Counted from the stretch's first letter, positions 1,942-53,902 are shown. The stretch: 53,902 nucleotides of DNA from a virus (IMGVR_UViG_3300033463_000182:1-53902), one strand, 5' to 3'. The notes: generated from the letters alone by a model not told the origin. Program-made: numbers and translations.

Positions 1942-4900
1942 GTGTACACCTCCACCGCATCCCGCATTTTCTTTTCTTCAAACCACTTGTCCAGCCGTTT
2001 CTTGTCCTCCTGGAGCACCTGTTCAACGCCCGTCGCGTCCGCCGCGTTGATGGTCGGGCTGTAAACAATCGTCGTGGGCGTGTGGCCCGCGTCCGCGTTC
2101 AGCCCGCCGAAGCGGGCCAGGATGTCCGGCCAGGTGAAGCCGCTGGCCGCGCGTGCCGCGTCCAGCAGTTCCGCCGTGCGCTCGCTGTGTTCCTCCGGGA
2201 TAGCCCATTCCGGCCCAGCCTCGCCGAAGATCGACGCGCTGGTGGCGCGTCCGCCCTCGGCAAACAGCTTTTTGCCCGCGATGTTGACGGTGATCGTCCG
2301 CCCGTTGTAGCTGGCGATGGCTGCCGCAAGGGCGCTGGTGTTGCCGTTCACGATCTCGGTCAGCACCTTGCCGTCCTCGCCCATGATAACCATGTGAAGG
2401 TCGGTGGCGTCGCCGTTCAGATATTCAAGCAGCGTTTGTCCGTCCGCGCCGTCGATGGTGGCTTGCAGTTGCGTATCGTCCGCGCCCACGTCCACCGTCA
2501 CGCCCTGCTCTTGCAGGCTGGTCATGGCGTCCTCGCCCTCGACCTTCGGCTTGACGGGGATCGCCACGGGTTCCATGTCCGGCATATCGCCCATTTCCGG
2601 CGTCACGGGTACGGTGATCCTGTAATCCTCCGCGTGCTTGCTGGCTTCTCCGTACATGAGTTCCCATGCTGCATAGTCGTACCTGAAAGCGTTTCCTTCT
2701 CCCGCAAGAAAGCTGCTGCTGTCCGCAAGAATCCGCTCAAAGTCGTAATTCTGCATGAGCTGGTCAACGAGATTGTTGTACTCTTTTGCGGCATTGCCTT
2801 TAAGGCTCGCGCTGTTGATGGCCCTTACCGTTCCCTCGTTCACGCTTTGCCCGATGGCGTCGAAATAGGCGCTCATGCTGCCTTTGCCGCTTCCCAACGC
2901 GGCAATGGTCGCCCTTGCTGTCGCCGTAGTATAGTCGCTCTGCCCAAGCAGTACGGCTTCGGCGTTCTTTTTGTTCATCGCACTCGGCAGATGTTCGTCT
3001 GCGTTTGTGTTCATGTAGTCCGCCGTCAGGTTCAGAATATCCCAGGCAGGCTTATCAAGCGCTGTACTATAACCGAAGTTATTGATAAGCTGCTCCATGG
3101 CGTACATCTGCCGCAGCCGTCCGGCCATTGCGGTATCGCCGATTCCTTCATAGTAGGCGATCCGTTCTTCCACGCCCTCGTTGCCGCCCATGCTGCTAAT
3201 CATATAGCCCATGAGGCGTCCAAGCTGTGCGCGGTCTGTGTTCTTCATGCTCGGTATCCAGCCGGCATCTGCGCCCGTATAGACGCTTGCGCCCATCTGG
3301 TCTTTGAGCAGATTATAGATTGTGTCGCTTGTCAACTCGCCGGACATATATTGATTCGCATATCCGGCAAGTATTCCGTAATTCTCCGCCTGCCCGCTTT
3401 GCTGGAGCTGGCTGTCCCACAGCGTAAACAGAAATTCGTCGTAGGCGGCATTGGTTTTCTGCTGCTCCGCCTTGTACTTCGCTTCCGCGCGGGCCAGGGT
3501 TTCCGCGTCCGCCCCCCGGTATTGCAGCCGGAAGTATTCGGTTTCAAACCGATCCTGCTGCGCCGCCAGGATTTCGTCGCGCTCCGTCGTGGCTGTTTCC
3601 GCAAGGCCCTTGATGTCCTCAAGGCTGGCCGTTTGGGCCTGCTTGAGCCACTTATTCATCTTGATATAATCTTCTTCGCTTTGGGCCTCCGCCGCCGCCC
3701 GCGCCACGGCGTCGTTATAGCTTTTCATGTACGAAAGTATCTGTTGATACTCCTCGTCGCTGATTTCGCCGTCCGCAAAGGCGCTGGTCATGGCCGCGCG
3801 CAAGCCCTGGCTGATTGTGGTTGCTTCGGCCATCGCGTCCTCATACGCCTGGTTGGTCAGGTCGATAATCTGCTGATAGGCCGGGTCGTATTCCGCCGTC
3901 CCGTCCCCGCCGAAAAGCGTCTGCCAGTAGCTCATGCTGGCCGCCGTGCTGTTGGCAATGGCCCCCTGTACAGCCAGAAACATATCTTGTCCCAGGCTTT
4001 CCAGCGCGGCCTTGTCTGCGTCGGTCAGCTTCGCGTTGGTAATCATGTCCTGGAACAGCGTCGCGCTGAATGTGCTGCTGGCCGTCTTGTAGGATTCCAC
4101 GCTGTTGTCGAGGGCCTGCTTGAATCCGTCCACTTCGGCATAGGCCGCCTTGAAATCCTCGCCCAGCGTCTTGACGTAGCTCTGGATGCCCTGCGTGTCC
4201 AGCTCCATGTTGCCGAAGTTCTTTGCAAAGTCGGCTTCTTCAAGCTGTTTAATGGCCGTCGCCGCCGCCGTCAGCGCAATAAGGCCCAGGCCGATGCCGC
4301 CCGCCGGGGTCAGTAAATAGCCGATCATGCGGAAAGCGCCGCCCGCCAGCAGCAGGCCGGGGCCTGCCGCCGCGATAACCTCCAGCCCGGACACGAGCGC
4401 GCCGAGCTGGTCGCTGTCCATTTCCGCCAGCTTGTCCACCAGGCCGCCGATAAAGCCGGTAGCCTGTTCAACCTGGCCGGAAAGCTCCTCGCCGACGAGC
4501 TGCTTTAGGCGCTCCACCTTGCTTTCAAAGGTTTCGATCTTGCCGTCCAGCGTGTCCATCATGGTTTCGGCGGCGTACTGGCCGTAGCCCGCCGCGTCGC
4601 CGCCCATCATGGCCTCATACAGCCCATCGTAGCCCTCCGCAGCGCCCCGCAGCAGGGTCAAAGCCTCGGTGATGGTACGGGTCGGGAAGATGGCGGACAG
4701 CACGGACAGCGCCGCGCCGTTGCGGTCTATGTTCTCATAGCCGCCCGCGATGTCGCCCAGGGCGACGTACAGCTCCCGGTAGATGTCCAGCACGTTCTTC
4801 ATCTGCCCCTGCTTCGGGCCGTCTGTATAGAACGCGCTGAATCCGTGGGCCGCCAGCTCCGCGTTGGCCGCCGCCAGCGATTCGTCGTTCAGCAGGGCCG

Positions 4901-5645
4901 CCGTTTCGGTGCTGGTCGCGCCGAGCTGTGCCATGGCCTTTTTGGCCTTGTCCGTCGGGGCGATCAGACGCATCATGGAGTTGCGGATCATGGTGCCCGC
5001 TTCGCTGCCCGTCGCGCCCGCGTTGGCCGTCACGGCGATAAGGGTCATAAGCTCCTCGGTATTGCCAGCAAAGCGCATGGTGCTTCCCATGCGCAGCATG
5101 GCGTCGCCAAACTCGCCGATGGTGCTTGCGCTGCTGTTCGCCGCGAAAGCCCAAAGGTCGATGAAGTTCCCCAAATCCTCAAAGCCGATGCCCGCCGCGT
5201 TGGTGCTTTTTACGATGTAGTTCACCGCTTCGGACAGGTCAAGCCCGCCCGCCTGCGCAAGCTGCATCGCCGCCGGGATGCCACTCATGATCTGGTCAAA
5301 GTCCCAGCCTGCGTGCGCGGCCTCCGATATGGCGTTTGCCACGTCGTTTGTGTGGAAAATCGTCGTCGCGGCCCATTCCGTCGCGGAAACGTCCAGTTGG
5401 GTCATAACTTGGTTCAGTTCCCGCGTGCCGCGCCCGTACACCGTCGAAAGAGCTACCTCCGCGTCGGCCATGCTCTTTTCGTATTCCCGATATACTTTTA
5501 CGCTGTCCTTGCCAAAGTTGATAAGCTGCTGGCTTACCCCGTTGACCATGCTCCCAAGTTCGGTGAGTGTCGCACCCACCTGGGCAAAACCGTTTCCTAC
5601 TCGCGCGTTAATCGCAATAACAGTTTCAAGCGTCTGGCTCGCCAC
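1938..5645 (-). CDS. Tail tape measure protein
   Basis: 1235 aa. The N-terminal TP901-type tape-measure motif region (IGEFGDAMLRMGSTMRFAG..., GSEAGTMIRNSMMRL) is followed by long helical repeats. Lies downstream of the tube and chaperone genes. Confidence 0.9.
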   Translation of the reverse strand: MASQTLETVIAINARVGNGFAQVGATLTELGSMVNGVSQQLINFGKDSVKVYREYEKSMADAEVALSTVYGRGTRELNQVMTQLDVSATEWAATTIFHTNDVANAISEAAHAGWDFDQIMSGIPAAMQLAQAGGLDLSEAVNYIVKSTNAAGIGFEDLGNFIDLWAFAANSSASTIGEFGDAMLRMGSTMRFAGNTEELMTLIAVTANAGATGSEAGTMIRNSMMRLIAPTDKAKKAMAQLGATSTETAALLNDESLAAANAELAAHGFSAFYTDGPKQGQMKNVLDIYRELYVALGDIAGGYENIDRNGAALSVLSAIFPTRTITEALTLLRGAAEGYDGLYEAMMGGDAAGYGQYAAETMMDTLDGKIETFESKVERLKQLVGEELSGQVEQATGFIGGLVDKLAEMDSDQLGALVSGLEVIAAAGPGLLLAGGAFRMIGYLLTPAGGIGLGLIALTAAATAIKQLEEADFAKNFGNMELDTQGIQSYVKTLGEDFKAAYAEVDGFKQALDNSVESYKTASSTFSATLFQDMITNAKLTDADKAALESLGQDMFLAVQGAIANSTAASMSYWQTLFGGDGTAEYDPAYQQIIDLTNQAYEDAMAEATTISQGLRAAMTSAFADGEISDEEYQQILSYMKSYNDAVARAAAEAQSEEDYIKMNKWLKQAQTASLEDIKGLAETATTERDEILAAQQDRFETEYFRLQYRGADAETLARAEAKYKAEQQKTNAAYDEFLFTLWDSQLQQSGQAENYGILAGYANQYMSGELTSDTIYNLLKDQMGASVYTGADAGWIPSMKNTDRAQLGRLMGYMISSMGGNEGVEERIAYYEGIGDTAMAGRLRQMYAMEQLINNFGYSTALDKPAWDILNLTADYMNTNADEHLPSAMNKKNAEAVLLGQSDYTTATARATIAALGSGKGSMSAYFDAIGQSVNEGTVRAINSASLKGNAAKEYNNLVDQLMQNYDFERILADSSSFLAGEGNAFRYDYAAWELMYGEASKHAEDYRITVPVTPEMGDMPDMEPVAIPVKPKVEGEDAMTSLQEQGVTVDVGADDTQLQATIDGADGQTLLEYLNGDATDLHMVIMGEDGKVLTEIVNGNTSALAAAIASYNGRTITVNIAGKKLFAEGGRATSASIFGEAGPEWAIPEEHSERTAELLDAARAASGFTWPDILARFGGLNADAGHTPTTIVYSPTINAADATGVEQVLQEDKKRLDKWFEEKKMRDAVEVYT

Positions 5646-29710: not shown

Positions 29711-29783
29711 TGGCGCGGGCGGCAGGGTACGGGCCTGCAACTGCCGATTTTGGAGATCGGGGCTTTCTATAAGCTACACCCAC
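29711..29783 (-). tRNA. Atypical tRNA-like gene, anticodon CCA (Trp) with encoded CCA end
   Basis: Hand fold: GTGGGTG-TA-GCTT-ATAGA-AAGC-C-CCGAT-CTCCAAA-ATCGG-CAGTT-GCAGG-CCCGTAC-CCTGC-CGCCCGC-G-CCA (73 nt). Two G-U pairs in the acceptor stem, a 5-nt D loop without GG, and a non-canonical T loop. Confidence 0.45.
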
Positions 29784-43102: not shown

Positions 43103-43869
43103 TCATAAATCGAATAGACTGATCTGGTTCATTTCCGCGTCCAGCCGTTCCTTTGCGGCCCTATAATACTCCGGGTCGATCTCAAAGCCCACAAATTCCA
43201 GCCCCGCGCGGCGGCAGGCTATCAGGCTGCTTGCGCTCCCGCAATGCGTGTCCAGTATCTTGTCCCCTTCCTTGGCGTACCGGGACAGGAGCCATTGATA
43301 CAGCTTGACCGGCTTCTGTGTCGGGTGGAATCGCTTTTCCCTTGCCGATCCCTGCGGCATACACTCAAACAGCTTCGCGTTGTCGTTGAAGCTCGTCCAG
43401 GCGTATTCGCACATCGCCATGGTGAAATTCTCGCTGATGGTCAGTTTCCGCCACACGATAAAACACCGCGTCGGCGGCAGGCGAAAGTAATTCCCGCCCC
43501 AAATGATTTGATTTTTGCTGACGCGGGCCAGCTCCTTGAAATAATCCTCGCCGGGGGCCACGTCCCAATGCTTGATGTTTGCGCTGCTAAAGAGGCCCCC
43601 TGGCTTGTATTTCTGAAAGTACCCTCCGCCCGTCCGGGCCGCCTTGATCGTCGTTTGCAAAGTGATACTGCCGGAATCGTCCGCCGAAGCGTCCGTTTTT
43701 ATGTTTCTCCCAATCAGTACCCCCCCCCCGCCAGGTTTCCGGCGTCTGCATCCTCGGCCCGTCCGCCGCCTCCGTAGGGCGGATCGACGATTGCCAGGTC
43801 AAAATACTTGTCGGGAAATTCCTTCATCCCCTCCATGCAATCCATGTTGTAGAATCCGGGATCAAGCAT
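43103..43869 (-). pseudogene. N6-adenine/N4-cytosine DNA methyltransferase interrupted by a frameshift at a G10 tract (phase-variable, recoded or a homopolymer error)
   Basis: The ATG at 43867-43869 gives MLDPGFYNMDCMEGMKEFPDKYFDLAIVDPPYGGG...LAGGGY-stop. The frame reached by one extra G continues ...NQIIWGGNYF...FHPTQKPVKLYQWLL...DTHCGSASS... to 43103. Confidence 0.75.
43720..43729 (-). repeat. G10 homopolymer (C10 on the + strand)
   Basis: Counted directly: c at 43720 plus nine c at 43721-43729. Confidence 0.9.
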
Positions 43870-44476
43870 TTCCCTTCACCCGCTTTCCGGCCAGCATATT
43901 GAATTTCATAAGGCTTTCGTCGATGTTCTCCTGGATCACGCCGATATATACCAGCGTTTCCCGCTGGTAGCTGTGGCAGAGAATCCTTTGCAGGCTCACC
44001 ACGTCGCCGGTCATTTTGTAGTAATGATACCCAAACGTCTTGCGCAGCGTATGGCATCCGATCCTGTCCTCTATGCCCGCTTCCTTGGCAATCTCGTTGA
44101 TGATCTGATAGCACCGCTGCCGCGTAATGGGCCGGTATTTGTGCGTCGCCGCGTCCTTTTGGCGGCTCTGGAAGATATACTCGTCCGACTTTCTTCCCGC
44201 CAGCAGGCGGTTGATTTCCCGCCGCGCCTGGGGGTTTATCAGGATGCGGGCCTCCTTCCCGGTTTTCTTGGCCTGTATCTGCGCATAGTCCTTCCCCTTG
44301 AGGTCTGCCACCTTGAAGCGCCGAAAGTCGCTCACGCGCAGGCTGGTATTAAATCCCACGAGCAAGATCAATTCCCAGCATACTTCCCCGGTCTTTCGGT
44401 TCTTATCGTGATCCCGCGCAATCTCATAGCACTTTTGCAGCACGTCCAGATCGCGGATGGGCTGTACCACCTTCAT
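43862..44476 (-). CDS. Small tyrosine recombinase (catalytic domain only)
   Basis: 204 aa. LRVSD (Arg I), HTLRKTF (His-x-x-Arg), HSYQRETLVYIG (His...Tyr). Confidence 0.75.
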   Translation of the reverse strand: MKVVQPIRDLDVLQKCYEIARDHDKNRKTGEVCWELILLVGFNTSLRVSDFRRFKVADLKGKDYAQIQAKKTGKEARILINPQARREINRLLAGRKSDEYIFQSRQKDAATHKYRPITRQRCYQIINEIAKEAGIEDRIGCHTLRKTFGYHYYKMTGDVVSLQRILCHSYQRETLVYIGVIQENIDESLMKFNMLAGKRVKGNA

Positions 44477-46943: not shown

Positions 46944-47036
46944 TTACCTCCCATTGGCATAGATGAGCGCCGCAAGGATCATGCCAAAAAGGGCCGATGC
47001 GGGAACAATCCAAACCAGGTGCCATGCAGAAATCAT
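46944..47036 (-). CDS. 30-aa single-TM peptide (not in the ORF track)
   Basis: GGAGGTG RBS. The ATG overlaps the RT stop (ATGA). MISAWHLVWIVPASALFGMILAALIYANGR. Confidence 0.35.
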   Translation of the reverse strand: MISAWHLVWIVPASALFGMILAALIYANGR

Positions 47037-48400
47037 AAATAAATCACCTCCGCGCTTTCCAGCCAGTCGCCATAGTGCATCCGTATGTGTTCTTCAAGGC
47101 TTCCGCCCCATTGAGGATCTTTTGGGTCGATCCCGCGCACCGAAAGCACGCGGATGTCAAAGTCCATTCGTCCCGTCAGGTCGTCGTAGGCCGGAACAGC
47201 CTCGCCCGGTGTCAGCCAAATATCCACAAGGCCGTCCTCCGCCTCGACGATTCTATAAAAATGCCGCCTGTTCCCCGGCGGCTGATCGCTCGCGTTATTC
47301 ATGTTTTCGCACCTTTGCAGTACAAAGTGTTCCTCGATCCAGCGCAGCATATTGTAGCCGTTACAATGCTTGCACATGCCGATGTAGCAGATCACGCTTT
47401 CCATCGCCGCGTCATAGCTGATCGCCCCGTAGGCGAAAGCGCTCATAACGTGTTTCAGCGCCCGCTTGATATGCCGCGTTGTTTTCTTCCTCATGCGGAT
47501 GCCGTGTGGCGTCAGCAGATACCCCACAAACTCCACCGGGGCCGTCGCTTTCTGGATGCGGCTTTTGGGGCTGATGTCAAGCGCCAGCTCGTCCCGCAGG
47601 AAAGCGCTCACGGTGGCGAATACCCGCCGCGCTTCTTCCTTGCCTTTCACAAGGATGCAGAAATCGTCCATGTAGCGCACATAGAAATGGAGCCGCAGGA
47701 CGTGTTTGCAGTATTTGTCCAGCTTGTCCAGGAACAGGTTGGCCGTTTCCTGGCTGGTCAGGTTGCCGATGGGCATACCTACATCGTACAGCCGCAGGGC
47801 GCGCGGGCAATCGTCCGGCCTCATTCCCGGCGGCAGGCCAAAGGGCACGTCCGGGTTGTTGATGATAACGCCCATGAGCCAGCGATACCATTGATCGTCG
47901 CTGGTTTCGTCGTAGCTCTGCAACACCTTCCCGTGATCCACGCGGTAAAAGTATTTGCTGATGTCGCCCTTTATCAGATACCAGTCGTCCGCGTCCGGCT
48001 TCCGGCTGATAAGCTGCTGCCAGCTTTGCAGGCACTCCGCCGCCGCCAGCGTGCCCTTGTCGCGCCTGCATCCGTAGCTGTGTTCGATATAGCGCTTGTC
48101 AAGATAGGGGTTGATCTGCCGGTAGATGGCCCATTGCACCACGCGATCCCGGAAGCCCAGCGCCATGACCAGGCGCGGCTTCGGATAGCGTACATAAAAT
48201 TCTCTGTACGGGCCGACCTTATAGGTCATTTCACGTAATTCCTTCTGTATCTGGAGCAGATTTTCGCCCAGGTTGAAGGTGAAATCCAAAACCTCGTTGC
48301 GATACCGCTTGCTCTTTGCGGCGTCACGGTATGCGCCCATCAGGTTTTCAAAGTCGCAGATGCGGTCTTTCAGATTGTGCAGCCCTTCCAAAATGTTCAC
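47033..48400 (-). CDS. DGR reverse transcriptase with an extra C-terminal domain of roughly 100 aa
   Basis: IGNLTSQ (DGR-type motif 4) and YVRYMDD (motif 5); lies downstream of TR. Confidence 0.9.
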   Translation of the reverse strand: MNILEGLHNLKDRICDFENLMGAYRDAAKSKRYRNEVLDFTFNLGENLLQIQKELREMTYKVGPYREFYVRYPKPRLVMALGFRDRVVQWAIYRQINPYLDKRYIEHSYGCRRDKGTLAAAECLQSWQQLISRKPDADDWYLIKGDISKYFYRVDHGKVLQSYDETSDDQWYRWLMGVIINNPDVPFGLPPGMRPDDCPRALRLYDVGMPIGNLTSQETANLFLDKLDKYCKHVLRLHFYVRYMDDFCILVKGKEEARRVFATVSAFLRDELALDISPKSRIQKATAPVEFVGYLLTPHGIRMRKKTTRHIKRALKHVMSAFAYGAISYDAAMESVICYIGMCKHCNGYNMLRWIEEHFVLQRCENMNNASDQPPGNRRHFYRIVEAEDGLVDIWLTPGEAVPAYDDLTGRMDFDIRVLSVRGIDPKDPQWGGSLEEHIRMHYGDWLESAEVIYL

Positions 48401-48449
48401 CCCGCCCTGCGTGGGCCGCGCGTGATGTTTCCATGCGGCTTTGACTGTA

Positions 48450-48473
48450 ATACCCTAAAAGGCTTTAGGGTAT
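48450..48473 (-). other. Perfect 10-bp hairpin in the TR-RT spacer
   Basis: ataccctaaa-aggc-tttagggtat. Confidence 0.7.
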
Positions 48474-48664
48474 GCTGCTGACAGCCTCGGCCTTTCGTCC
48501 TCCCGGACGCTTCGCGGCGATTCCCGCGCCGCCTTTTCCCCCGGAGCGTTCTTGCCGGAGCAGCACGGGATTTTTGTTTAGGCGGTTTTCACCGCCACGG
48601 AAACGCACCCCTCCCATCAGAAGGATGGCCGCTGATTCGTGATCTCGCGGCGCGTGATGTATGC

Positions 48665-48785
48665 TGGGAGCGCGGGCGGCAGCCATAGTTGTTGTTCGCA
48701 TTGCCGCGCTCGTTGTTGGAGTTGACATACCCCAAGCCCGCGTTGGAGCCGTTGTTGTAGTTGCCGCCGCGACGCGGGAAGCGCT
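48665..48785 (-). repeat. DGR template repeat (TR)
   Basis: 121 nt, collinear with VR at an offset of 710 nt. All 18-19 mismatches are at TR adenines (T on the + strand). Sense translation: RGGNYNNGSNAGLGYVNSNNERGNANNNYGCRPRS. Confidence 0.9.
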
Positions 48786-48816
48786 AACGAACGCATGGCG
48801 ATCCAGGCCGTCCAAT

Positions 48817-49239
48817 TCACGGCACGTTCCCTTTATAGTCGCTGCTTTTCCGGCCAGATACGCTATTGATCCAGCCGCCGATTAAGGCCCCGATTTCCGC
48901 GATCTTTTCAGACCACACGCCGTAACTTTGATCGGTGAGCAGACGCCTTTCCTGTCCGTTCTTTGCGGTGAATACGGTCTTGTTGGCCTGCTGGATCAGC
49001 ACGTCCAATACGGCCTTGCTGGTGTCCAGGTCGCCCAGCGTGCTTTTGTTCATGTACTTGAGCCGCGCTTTCGTCGCCAGCCGGAGCATGGTGTACATTT
49101 CCTGCATGATGTCCACGCCCAGGCTCTTTTGATGGAAGTACGGCCATCTTTGCACAATGGGCCGCGCCCAGCAGATCATGTCGTCGATCTTCTGGCAGCA
49201 CGGCCCCGGATTCTTTGCGTCGTACCTAAATTCTGGCAT
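48817..49239 (-). CDS. avd: Accessory variability determinant (Avd)
   Basis: 140 aa helical basic protein. ...IAEIGALIGGWINSV matches the Avd C-terminal helix pattern. Lies between the target gene and TR. Confidence 0.8.
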   Translation of the reverse strand: MPEFRYDAKNPGPCCQKIDDMICWARPIVQRWPYFHQKSLGVDIMQEMYTMLRLATKARLKYMNKSTLGDLDTSKAVLDVLIQQANKTVFTAKNGQERRLLTDQSYGVWSEKIAEIGALIGGWINSVSGRKSSDYKGNVP

Positions 49240-49264
49240 ACCGTTTCACCTTATCAGAACATCA

Positions 49265-49302
49265 TCACGCGCGCGTGACCGATTCTATTCACGCGCGCGT
49301 GA
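49265..49302. promoter_or_regulatory. Two identical 14-bp palindromes TCACGCGCGCGTGA upstream of avd
   Basis: 49265-49278 and 49289-49302, 24 bp centre to centre. Confidence 0.6.
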
Positions 49303-49314
49303 TGGAGAGGGACG

Positions 49315-49339
49315 GGGGCGCGCCCTACCGGGCGGCCCC
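49315..49339 (-). other. GC hairpin downstream of VR (DGR target-recognition element candidate)
   Basis: 10 bp with one bulge and a 4-nt loop (tacc on the + strand), 35 nt beyond the VR end. Confidence 0.6.
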
Positions 49340-49370
49340 ATCAGGGATTCAGTTTTCAGTCGTCAGGGGT

Positions 49371-50585
49371 TCAGAGGGAGCGCGGGCGGCAGCCAAAGGG
49401 GTAGACCGCACCGCCGCGCTCGTCGCTGGAGTAGACAAACCCCAAGCCCGCGGCGGAGCCGCTGATGAAGTAGCCGCCGCGACGCGGGAAGCGCTCGCCC
49501 GCCGTGAAGTTGACGTAGTAATAGCCGGGGGTGTCGTCGTTTGCGTCGGTCTTGATAAGGCCCAGCTCCTTGACGATGCTCGGCACATATGGAAGGTTCG
49601 TGCTGTTCACGGCAACCGTGCTGAAGCTCTCGCCCTTGCTGCCAACGGTCAGGTCGTCGCATTGCGTGTCCAGGGTAATATGCCCGTTCAGCCAGTTCCA
49701 ATGCAGCGTGCCGGTGGTGCCGGGGGCAACCAGCGTGTAGCCGTCGTCGCCCGCGTTGGGCAGGATCGCTTTCCACGCGGCGGAAGAAGCGGACAGGTCG
49801 GCGTCCGGGTCGGCGGCGTTGTTGTTCTCCAGGATTTGCAGCTCGCAATCGACGATCCGATAGCCGTACTGCTGTTCCAAGGAAGAACCGATGATGTCCG
49901 CCAGCAGCGCGGGATCGCTGCCAAGATACCAGTCCAGCGGGCCGCTGCCGTTCAGCGTCCGATAGCCGGTCTGGTGCGCGGCGTCCGGCGTGCCGTCGTT
50001 GCTGATGCCGCCCACATACTTGCCGCGCTCCCAATAGGTCGGGGCGATGTCAGGCCGCAGCTCCGCCGCGCTGGTGTGCGCTTGCAGGGCCTTGTAGATA
50101 TAGCCGTTGTAGGCGCGCTCGTTGTTCACCGAAATGCTCTTGCCGGTTTCCCATGCCGTCGCGTCCTGGTGCGCCTGCCCCCACGCGGTATTGCCGTGCG
50201 GCTTCCAGCCCATCTTCTGCGCCAGCAGCTTGATAAAGCCGTAGTCCGCACAGGTCATGCCGGTAATACCGCTGCCCGCCAGCTTCATGCGGGACAGGCA
50301 TTGATCCGCGCCCAGGGAGCGAATCGGGTTGATGTTCGGCAGGGACAGGATCGCGCCGCCGGAAACGCCGTTGTCGCCGCCCTTGTACTTGCCCAGCAGA
50401 ATATAATCCTGCTCCACGCCGTTGATGATAAAGGCGGGGTGGGTGTGGTTCGGCAGGCCGGAAACCAGGTCAGAGGATTTCATCTTCGGGAATTTCACGA
50501 AGATACCGGCCACGTTGCCGTTGGCGTCGTACTTCACGATGTTGCCGTACTTCTTCGCCAGAAATTCAAGCGGGCTGTTATTCAT
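49371..50585 (-). CDS. DGR target protein, putative receptor-binding tail-fibre protein with a C-type-lectin-fold VR
   Basis: 404 aa, last gene of the fibre cluster; the VR occupies the C-terminal 40 codons. Confidence 0.8.
   Translation of the reverse strand: MNNSPLEFLAKKYGNIVKYDANGNVAGIFVKFPKMKSSDLVSGLPNHTHPAFIINGVEQDYILLGKYKGGDNGVSGGAILSLPNINPIRSLGADQCLSRMKLAGSGITGMTCADYGFIKLLAQKMGWKPHGNTAWGQAHQDATAWETGKSISVNNERAYNGYIYKALQAHTSAAELRPDIAPTYWERGKYVGGISNDGTPDAAHQTGYRTLNGSGPLDWYLGSDPALLADIIGSSLEQQYGYRIVDCELQILENNNAADPDADLSASSAAWKAILPNAGDDGYTLVAPGTTGTLHWNWLNGHITLDTQCDDLTVGSKGESFSTVAVNSTNLPYVPSIVKELGLIKTDANDDTPGYYYVNFTAGERFPRRGGYFISGSAAGLGFVYSSDERGGAVYPFGCRPRSL
49375..49495 (-). repeat. DGR variable repeat (VR), 3' end of the target gene
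   Basis: See TR. Encodes RGGYFISGSAAGLGFVYSSDERGGAVYPFGCRPRSL-stop. The invariant GC-rich 3' end (49376-49394) is IMH-like. Confidence 0.9.
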
Positions 50586-50829
50586 TCGTGCCGCCCTCCT
50601 CCATCATTTCGACGAGTTCCTGGTATTCCTCCACGGTGATGCGGTCAGCCATCAGGAACACGTCGAGCTTCTGCATAGTCGCTTCGCGGTCAAGGTTGCC
50701 TTTCTTGAGGCCGTTTTCAATGAGCCGCTTCATCAGCTTGTAGGTCATGGTGTTTACCTCCAATCCTTTCAGAATTTTGTTGTACTGCCGGTCAATGATT
50801 TTCCCGGCGATCCAGGCCGTCAGGCTCAT
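50578..50829 (-). CDS. XkdX-like small protein (paralog 2)
   Basis: MTYKLMKRLIENGLKKGNLDREATMQKLDVFLMADRITVEEYQELVEMM core. The start may be 50829 or 50749. Confidence 0.5.
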   Translation of the reverse strand: MSLTAWIAGKIIDRQYNKILKGLEVNTMTYKLMKRLIENGLKKGNLDREATMQKLDVFLMADRITVEEYQELVEMMEEGGTNE

Positions 50830-50987
50830 TCGTCCATCAGCCCCACAAGTTCCTGGTACTGCGCCGTGGTCAGGCGGTCAGCGGCCAGAAAGGCGTCCAG
50901 CTTGTCCATGATCCCGGCCCGCTTTTCCTCCAGCGTGCCGTCTTTCTTCGCGGTGTTGATGATCCGCTTCATCAGGTTATAAGCCAT
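50826..50987 (-). CDS. XkdX-like small protein (paralog 1; not in the ORF track)
   Basis: GGAGGAATAACC-ATG; MAYNLMKRIINTAKKDGTLEEKRAGIMDKLDAFLAADRLTTAQYQELVGLMDE. Confidence 0.5.
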   Translation of the reverse strand: MAYNLMKRIINTAKKDGTLEEKRAGIMDKLDAFLAADRLTTAQYQELVGLMDE

Positions 50988-53255: not shown

Positions 53256-53902
53256 TTAGGAAGAAATCGCCGTCAGCGTAATGGTGCCCTTGCACCGTTC
53301 GTTGGCGTTGATCTCCGTGTATTCCACCGTCCCGCTGTCGAAATTGCTCCCCGTGTCCCAAATAACGCGCGTCGCGCCTGCCTGGTAGATGGCCGCCATC
53401 AGCCGGTCAGGGTTAAAAGCCCGCCCGATGGTGTTGTCCTGCCATTCCTGGTAGTCGCTCACCGCCGCCGCAATCGCCGCGCTGGTGGCGCTGCTGTTGT
53501 CGCTGGCGTATTTCACGTTCAGCGTATAGGGTACGTTGGTCGCCTGATAAACGCTTACGTTGTCCGTCAGCGGGCGCACGTCCTCCGCAGAAAGCGCGTC
53601 CAGCACGCTTTGAAGCAGCGCCGCAGCGCCCGTCTGTGTGGATAGGATCAGATAGATTGCCACGTTGCCCGCACTGGCGTTGATGGCCCTGGCGTCCAGG
53701 ATCACGCTGCTTACAGCCTTTGCCGCCGCCTCGTACTGCCTTGCCGGGCCGGTGGAAACGCTCGCAAGGCCGTATTCCCGGATGCGCTCGCGGTAGGTTT
53801 CGTCGTCCTCCGCCTCGTTTCCGCCCGTGGCGTCCGTCGCCACAATGATGCTGTTCACGCCCGCGTTGGTAATGGCAAGGCCCATCTGTGTGCCTGTCAG
53901 CA
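53256..53902 (-). CDS. Baseplate J-like protein, C-terminal part (continues from 1-581 through the circular junction)
   Basis: GLAITNAGVNSIIVATDATGGNEAEDDETYRERIRE... is typical of the gpJ family; the ORF runs off the window end. Confidence 0.8.
   Translation of the reverse strand, partial: LTGTQMGLAITNAGVNSIIVATDATGGNEAEDDETYRERIREYGLASVSTGPARQYEAAAKAVSSVILDARAINASAGNVAIYLILSTQTGAAALLQSVLDALSAEDVRPLTDNVSVYQATNVPYTLNVKYASDNSSATSAAIAAAVSDYQEWQDNTIGRAFNPDRLMAAIYQAGATRVIWDTGSNFDSGTVEYTEINANERCKGTITLTAISS
53776..53902. repeat. Terminal overlap copy 2 (identical to 1-127)
   Basis: Verbatim identity read directly. Confidence 0.95.

Follow-up and report, generated by a model that had tools for sequence, protein, structure and literature searches.

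In the viral contig IMGVR_UViG_3300033463_000182, a 404-aa target gene is followed on the minus strand by a small gene, a non-coding repeat of the end of the target gene, and a reverse transcriptase (RT) gene. This arrangement raises the question of whether the cassette represents a complete diversity-generating retroelement (DGR) and whether such an element is at work in nature. The analysis covered the whole stretch of 53,902 nt, hereafter the window, to which all coordinates refer; the elements of the cassette are located on the minus strand unless stated otherwise. An original prediction, made from the nucleotide sequence alone, had described the cassette as a complete DGR. In our view it is almost certainly a canonical and complete DGR with the layout of the Bordetella phage BPP-1 element, i.e., target gene with variable region (VR), avd, template region (TR), spacer, and RT, which would work as it does in BPP-1. 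The repeat anatomy, the protein families, the conservation of catalytic residues, covarying RNA and DNA structures, and an adenine-restricted turnover of VR directly support this assignment.

Template and Variable Regions

The VR (49376-49495) comprises 120 nt and ends 2 nt before the stop codon of the target gene. It recurs without gaps 710 nt downstream as the TR (48666-48785), and the two copies form a direct repeat with 85% identity. This is the same pair that had been predicted, and the base-by-base realignment agrees with the prediction that the copies differ exclusively at TR adenines. All 18 mismatches were located at the 27 adenines of TR (18/27), none at the 93 other positions, and consist of eight A>T, seven A>G, and three A>C changes. 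For 18 randomly placed mismatches, the probability that all fall on the 27 adenine positions is approximately 4e-15 (hypergeometric). The boundary base (48665 in TR, 49375 in VR), previously classified as A-type, is indeed an adenine in TR, with T in VR. When both strands were scanned with the adenine positions disregarded, no further VR copy was revealed in the window.

All 18 substitutions are situated at codon position 1 or 2 and alter 14 codons. These are the 14 codons for which diversification had been predicted; they represent the codons that differ at present, whereas the diversifiable total amounts to 16, namely 11 AAY codons of TR read in the VR frame, three TAY codons, one GAG, and the boundary codon GNG. 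From these 16 codons about 9e15 protein variants are possible, and mutation within VR cannot create a stop codon.

The 3' end of VR is formed by an A-free, GC-rich stretch of 20 nt (49376-49395), which resembles the element for initiating mutagenic homing (IMH), is identical to the 3' end of TR (48666-48685), and is invariant in all near relatives. A sequence difference of the type that distinguishes IMH from IMH* in BPP-1 was not seen at the VR and TR 3' ends, because the TR/VR homology simply stops at GCTCCC.

Turnover of VR among Natural Genomes

The exact Avd protein was located at 10 positions on public contigs, and for nine of these DNA was available; one additional contig was obtained from IMG/VR. 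The resulting 10 near-relative contigs comprise L051 and L054, which are 99.985-100% identical to the window, and eight independent strains with 97-98% identity. TR is 100% identical in all 10 contigs and also in L059. L051 and L054 share the VR of the window. Considering the nine distinct genomes, i.e., the window and the eight strains, nine different VRs were observed together with one identical TR. In the alignment of these nine VRs, each of the 27 TR-adenine columns is variable and 92 of the 93 other columns are fixed, with pairwise differences of 12-24 nt. For the window and seven strains, the mean pairwise difference is 14.9% in VR versus 1-3% in the flanks; TR (0/120) and the gap between avd and TR (48786-48816; 0/31) lack variable columns. 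Due to the fact that none of these 151 columns varies while the flanks differ by 1-3%, continuing purifying selection on the template is indicated. A VR turnover that is restricted to adenines and proceeds over an invariant TR is the signature of repeated mutagenic retrohoming and shows that the element has been active in nature. The layout is shared by approximately 30 relatives with RTs of 56-95% identity, nearly all of which show A-only mismatches.

In the near-identical strain L050, an extra C in a C-run (5130-5145 of that locus) at RT nucleotide ~290 splits the RT gene into ORFs (open reading frames) of 122 and 319 aa. The VR of L050 is unique despite this frameshift.

The question of activity has to be weighed against the possibility of a relic, i.e., a DGR that diversified its target in the past and is now inactive in this genome, e.g., due to a regulatory or RNA defect, so that the VR differences between strains would be historical. 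Since L051 and L054 carry the exact VR of the window, VR does not change at every sampling; given their overall identity of 99.985-100%, both represent the same clone and are no evidence for stasis. The frameshifted RT of L050 may likewise be cited in favor of a relic, being due to a genuine inactivation or to an assembly error in the homopolymer. Furthermore, the VR evidence was obtained between genomes and not within a sample, and such a comparison would date the activity only to the time since these strains diverged. A relic is at odds with the intact state, in the window, of RT, Avd, and TR as well as of all covarying RNA and DNA elements, and with the lack of variable columns in TR and the adjacent gap. 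On balance we regard an inactive relic as very improbable and retain the reading of a working DGR. The “ongoing” diversification of the original prediction thereby holds for the phage population, in which VRs differ and TR is constant, and not within this single genome.

Reverse Transcriptase and Avd

The RT had been predicted as a 455-aa protein with the motifs IGNLTSQ and YVRYMDD. An ORF of this length (47033-48400) and both motifs are present, but the DGR RT proper extends only from aa 1 to ~366 (47303-48400), the remaining ~89 residues belonging to a different protein (see below). The RT matched RVT_1 (9e-19) and phrog_1423 (6e-106). Its best solved relative is PDB 8ub7 chain A (E 1.3e-41), which was verified as the BPP-1 RT (bRT) by translating brt from AY029185; group II intron RTs matched with 1e-16 or worse, which favors the original reading as a DGR. 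The RT is 35% identical to bRT, from which it differs by an insertion of ~22 aa. The residues of bRT described as catalytic or in contact with template or dNTP, K29, F66, R74, I76, D138, I181, G182, Q187, and D215/D216 (bioRxiv 10.1101/2023.10.23.563531), align with K31, F68, R76, V78, D146, I211, G212, Q217, and D245/D246. All of them are conserved except for one conservative change, I76 to V78, and the motif IGNLTSQ, which follows the [I/V]GxxxSQ pattern of the template site in DGR RTs, aligns with I181/G182/Q187, as YMDD does with D215/D216. Among cultured phages, the nearest RT is that of Faecalibacterium phage FP_Lagaffe with 45.5% identity over aa 9-365.

The 140-aa ORF between VR and TR (48817-49239), predicted to encode an Avd-like protein, is supported as avd (accessory variability determinant) by a match to Pfam bAvd PF22296 with 63.7 bits, exceeding the gathering threshold of 40, and by phrog_3206 “Avd protein of DGR” (3e-21).

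These protein families, together with the mismatch spectrum, bear on a second alternative, in which no retroelement produced the variation at all. The target would then carry a hypervariable receptor-binding tip, TR would be a silent duplicated fragment or gene-conversion donor, and the RT would be unrelated, of the group II intron, retron, or defence type. It is true that the top NCBIfam match of the RT is a group II intron RT/maturase model, albeit with 103 bits at a cut-off of 300 (the retron model reached 29 at a cut-off of 235), and that several phage records label homologues as “retron-type”. However, ordinary mutation or gene conversion would not restrict 18 of 18 differences, or 27 of 28 variable columns in nine genomes, to TR adenines. 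In addition, the match between RT and bRT is 25 orders of magnitude better than that to group II intron RTs, the I/G/Q template-site residues of bRT are present, avd adjoins, and Rfam gave no match to an intron, to retron msr/msd, or to any other RNA family. Due to the A-only spectrum, a hypervariable region that merely happens to lie beside an unrelated RT is effectively refuted, and we assign a vanishingly small probability to it.

The ~89 C-terminal residues of the RT ORF (47033-47302) follow in frame from approximately aa 367 and represent an additional small phage protein that is fused to the RT and is not RT itself. This part keeps its own ATG (aa 367) and an upstream AAGGTG Shine-Dalgarno-like site. 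Among 1.84 billion representative proteins 36 homologues were found, nearly all of which have a length of 51-125 aa and are free-standing. In case of L079, the free-standing homologue is located directly upstream of a phage lysozyme gene, and no RT occurs among the called genes of this 5.9-kb locus. The family (~85 aa) has the consensus GRxFYxI..DGxVDVYL..VRGV.P..LE..IR..Y..W..SAE.I.L; for the C-terminal part no Pfam or PHROG match was obtained. Both bRT and the RT of FP_Lagaffe differ in this respect: the fusion is a difference from BPP-1, and the match to FP_Lagaffe ends at aa 365, whereas in the clade of the window the RT is fused to the small protein. A homology of the extension to Bbp4, suggested by a tblastn hit running from brt into bbp4 of BPP-1, was rejected, since the direct comparison (E 27) gave no similarity and the tblastn extension was a read-through past the brt stop codon in the wrong frame.

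Target Protein

The predicted 404-aa target gene with VR at its end was found as ORF 49371-50585, with VR situated at the extreme C-terminus of the protein. Its closest solved homologue is TaqVP (PDB 5vf4), the variable protein of a Thermus aquaticus prophage DGR with an FGE-type C-type-lectin (CLec) fold and VR residues 341-381 (PMC6328139). The match is significant for the single sequence (E 3.9e-33) and for the profile (3e-37), covers query residues 30-149 and 203-402, and runs colinear along almost the entire length. Residues 364-403, encoded by VR, align with the VR of TaqVP, i.e., the 40-aa C-terminal VRs correspond to each other including the GER(F/L)P-RGG start and the G-RP end. Homology to a solved CLec-fold protein and alignment of the two VRs support a CLec fold, which the original prediction had proposed to test at the C-terminus, and the target is best regarded as a putative member of the TaqVP family with an FGE-type CLec fold. 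The only PHROG matched by the target is phrog_2889, a family of unknown function.

Unlike TaqVP, the target contains a module of ~45 aa similar to the carbohydrate-binding modules CBM5/12 (50022-50156, target aa 144-188). Target residues 150-202 stand in place of TaqVP residues 158-169, and the module lies where TaqVP has the “insert 1'” of the CLec domain, which braces the variable region in TaqVP. The Pfam family CBM_5_12 matched this insert with E 3.5e-4, below its cut-off, and the profile matched the chitin-binding domain of chitinase A1 (1ed7) with E 1.2e-5; for many close homologues of the target PF02839 is listed among the precomputed domains.

Structured RNA on the Template Side

The 265 nt between TR and the RT gene (48401-48665) constitute a putative structured spacer RNA similar to Sp of BPP-1, the spacer of which has a length of only ~140 nt. 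For the TR 3' ends and spacers of 13 relatives, RNAalifold predicted 52 base pairs, 31 of which show compensatory changes. In this structure 96% of the alignment cells are paired, compared to ~40% with slid partners, and none of 500 shuffles reached the observed covariation.

The alignment was extended by the 3' end of avd and then comprised 15 sequences. Pairing is predicted between the avd 3'-end strand GGGAACGUGCC (48821-48831) and the spacer strand GGUGCGUUUCC (48599-48609), with 98.8% of cells paired and three compensatory pairs in the 15 relatives. This avd:Sp helix is adjoined by a TR:Sp helix formed by CUCCCA at the TR 3' end (48665-48670) and UGGGAG of the spacer (48611-48616). A covarying stem-loop (48628-48651) is located immediately after TR. 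Another stem-loop (48581-48596), the stem sequences of which are unrelated in 13 of the 15 relatives, follows the avd-pairing strand and is succeeded by an A-rich stretch. The remainder of the spacer contains long-range helices (e.g., between 48513-48518 and 48415-48420) as well as a variable apical hairpin (48450-48473; z = -5.8), which corresponds to the perfect 10-bp hairpin previously noted between TR and RT and folds at 48473-48450. At gathering and E-value thresholds, no Rfam family was found for the spacer RNA.

In the BPP-1 ribonucleoprotein (RNP), the elements are ordered as an Avd-binding stem-loop, a TR:Sp template-primer duplex, an avd:Sp “cPRT Stop” duplex, a stem-loop with adenosines, and a larger protein-binding domain (bioRxiv 10.1101/2023.10.23.563531). 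The order of the spacer, TR, and avd helices predicted here is consistent with that of BPP-1, as supported by their covariation.

DNA Elements Downstream of VR

A GC-rich hairpin or cruciform (49315-49339) is located 35 nt past VR; its 10-bp stem contains a 3' bulge of 1 nt and carries a GGTA loop of the GRNA type (-12.8 kcal/mol, z = -3.0). It is identical to the bulged 10-bp hairpin already predicted at this distance and folds at 49339-49315. Among 19 relatives, five of the 10 pairs show compensatory changes and 91.5% of the cells are paired, compared to 40-67% in slid controls, with GGTA, GATA, GGGA, GGAA, GACA, or GGCA as loops. The experimentally defined element of BPP-1, which was also seen in other phage DGRs, has a GC stem of 7-10 bp and a 4-nt GRNA loop at a distance of 4-34 bp from VR (Guo 2011, PMC3240598). 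The hairpin of the window fits this published consensus.

The gap between the VR end and the hairpin is filled by an array of five CTGR motifs (49341-49374), which start at 49374, 49366, 49359, 49352, and 49344, i.e., with a spacing of 8-7-7-8, and provide TGA in all three frames. In BPP-1, the corresponding spacer has only 4 bp and its sequence is unimportant (PMC3240598). Considering the 19 relatives, the invariant columns between VR and hairpin lie within the CTG(A) motifs, and no such array occurs on the TR side. Repeats of the form (A)TCTG(T/A) preceding a GATA-loop hairpin were also observed in several DGRs (loci among L022-L048) with RTs of only ~35% identity. No description of such an array was found in the DGR literature examined. 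It is a tentative and rather unlikely suggestion that the array represents a retrohoming target-site element new to this literature. The array might serve for docking or initiation and so label VR, rather than TR, as the recipient. It is pure speculation that it might serve as a site for pentameric Avd, or for the loading of replisome or primase with antisense cDNA being taken up like a lagging-strand fragment.

L002 and L003 seemingly contain two VRs (~2138-2261 and ~3890-4013), with which the VR-side elements might have been tested independently. Since the VR copies and their downstream flanks are identical, they are explained by a 1752-bp tandem duplication or an assembly artefact and provide no independent information.

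A perfect 16-bp inverted repeat (49263-49304; z = -7.5), missing from the original prediction, is located between target gene and avd and arises from a twofold occurrence of the 14-bp palindrome TCACGCGCGCGTGA at a distance of 24 bp. The window, L059, and the L002-type lineage possess it, whereas other clade members lack it; possibly it is an operator or a transcript-end hairpin. Of the related 10-mer CATCACGCGC, the window contains only four copies, and the DGR cassette harbors all of them (49304, 49263 on the plus strand, 48659, and 48427). Two copies form the 16-bp inverted repeat, another one represents the 3' strand in a covarying helix of the spacer, and one overlaps the stem-loop following TR. 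The idea of a common operator or pairing motif was dismissed; no single explanation could be established for the four copies.

Genomic Context

The window is derived from an uncultured temperate phage of ruminant-gut Clostridia with a circular genome, and the DGR is situated in its late region. Due to an exact terminal overlap of 127 bp (1-127 = 53776-53902), the contig is considered circularly closed with ~53,775 bp (~53.8 kb). It encodes an integrase of the tyrosine type (43862-44476) and a single tRNA-Trp (29711-29783). Close relatives were found in IMG/VR and among metagenome-assembled genomes of Clostridia from sheep rumen, roe deer, goat, and cattle; in the INPHARED phages, megablast gave no DNA-level match to the window.

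Upstream of the target gene, Baseplate_J and Tail_P2_I genes are located on the minus strand, followed by several small ORFs. The label “tail-fibre module” that had been given to this region is an inference from position, namely from the location of the target downstream of Baseplate_J and Tail_P2_I. Downstream of the RT gene, two small putative membrane proteins, a GH25-SH3 endolysin, and the tyrosine integrase are encoded. Scans for sigma-70 promoters and intrinsic terminators gave nothing exceeding the shuffled expectation.

Directly upstream of the target gene, two tandem paralogous small genes (50578-50829 and 50826-50987, both on the minus strand) encode proteins of 83 and 53 aa, which belong to phrog_2310 (unknown function). 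Their DNA copies (repeats D2 and D3) are 73-84% identical.

Comparison with BPP-1 and Proposed Mode of Action

Similar to BPP-1 (mtd/VR, avd, TR, Sp, brt), the cassette shows the same gene order and orientation, a VR at the 3' end of a target gene with putative CLec fold, and an Avd. The likeness extends to the adenine-only TR/VR differences and to the GC-rich, A-free VR 3' end, behind which a GC hairpin with a GRNA loop of 4 nt is located. Apart from the spacer length and the RT features mentioned above, it differs from BPP-1 in the distance of the hairpin from VR (35 nt with the five CTGR motifs in between versus 4 nt), in the target, which is a single-domain protein of the TaqVP type versus the trimeric three-domain Mtd, and in the host, which is a Gram-positive anaerobe.

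Priming chemistry, homing route, and receptor-binding role are inferred from BPP-1, and the following mode of action is proposed by this analogy. The avd-TR-spacer transcript would fold by pairing of the TR 3' CUCCCA with the spacer UGGGAG and of the adjacent spacer strand with the avd 3' end. A complex of RT and Avd would prime in cis from the spacer, copy TR into cDNA, and misincorporate opposite adenines. The cDNA would then replace VR, with the common A-free, GC-rich 3' end as well as the GRNA-loop hairpin downstream as guides. The outcome would be a rewriting of 16 codons for the ligand-binding face of a CLec protein of the TaqVP type.

Besides the arguments for a relic, a number of observations count against this picture. 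For the spacer strand 48599-48610, an alternative pairing with TR 48674-48684 is possible (94.8% paired, one compensatory pair), which makes the exact template-primer geometry and the priming nucleotide of this scheme provisional. The NCBIfam model DivGenRetAVD scored 65 bits on the 140-aa ORF, below its equivalog cut-off of 80. The AlphaFold2 model of the target, based on 36 close homologues, reached a mean pLDDT (predicted local distance difference test) of 50 and is too poor to use; due to this, the CLec-fold assignment rests on sequence homology. The target is a presumed receptor-binding protein, a role that is derived from position and analogy.

Significance

Metagenomic DGR catalogues exist (Roux et al. 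2021, PMC8144416), and ~31,000 DGRs have been catalogued (quoted in bioRxiv 10.1101/2023.10.23.563531). DGRs were already reported in rumen viromes. Given the catalogued number and the rumen virome reports, the system itself is not new, and the DGR described here is an ordinary member of a well-known phage class with three minor oddities: the CTGR array, the RT fused to a ~89-aa protein, and the CBM5/12-like insert of the target.

What the locus adds is a well-documented DGR, active in nature, of an uncultured phage lineage of ruminant-gut Clostridia, for which nine natural VR alleles are available together with one invariant TR. The covarying RNA elements, which are predicted to be ordered as in the cryo-EM structure of BPP-1, support the generality of the cis-priming architecture. 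For DGR specialists, the conserved periodic CTGR array on the target side is a second point of value. It is the only lead with wider potential, and if its suggested role were true, the array would be relevant to the unsolved step of homing in DGRs.

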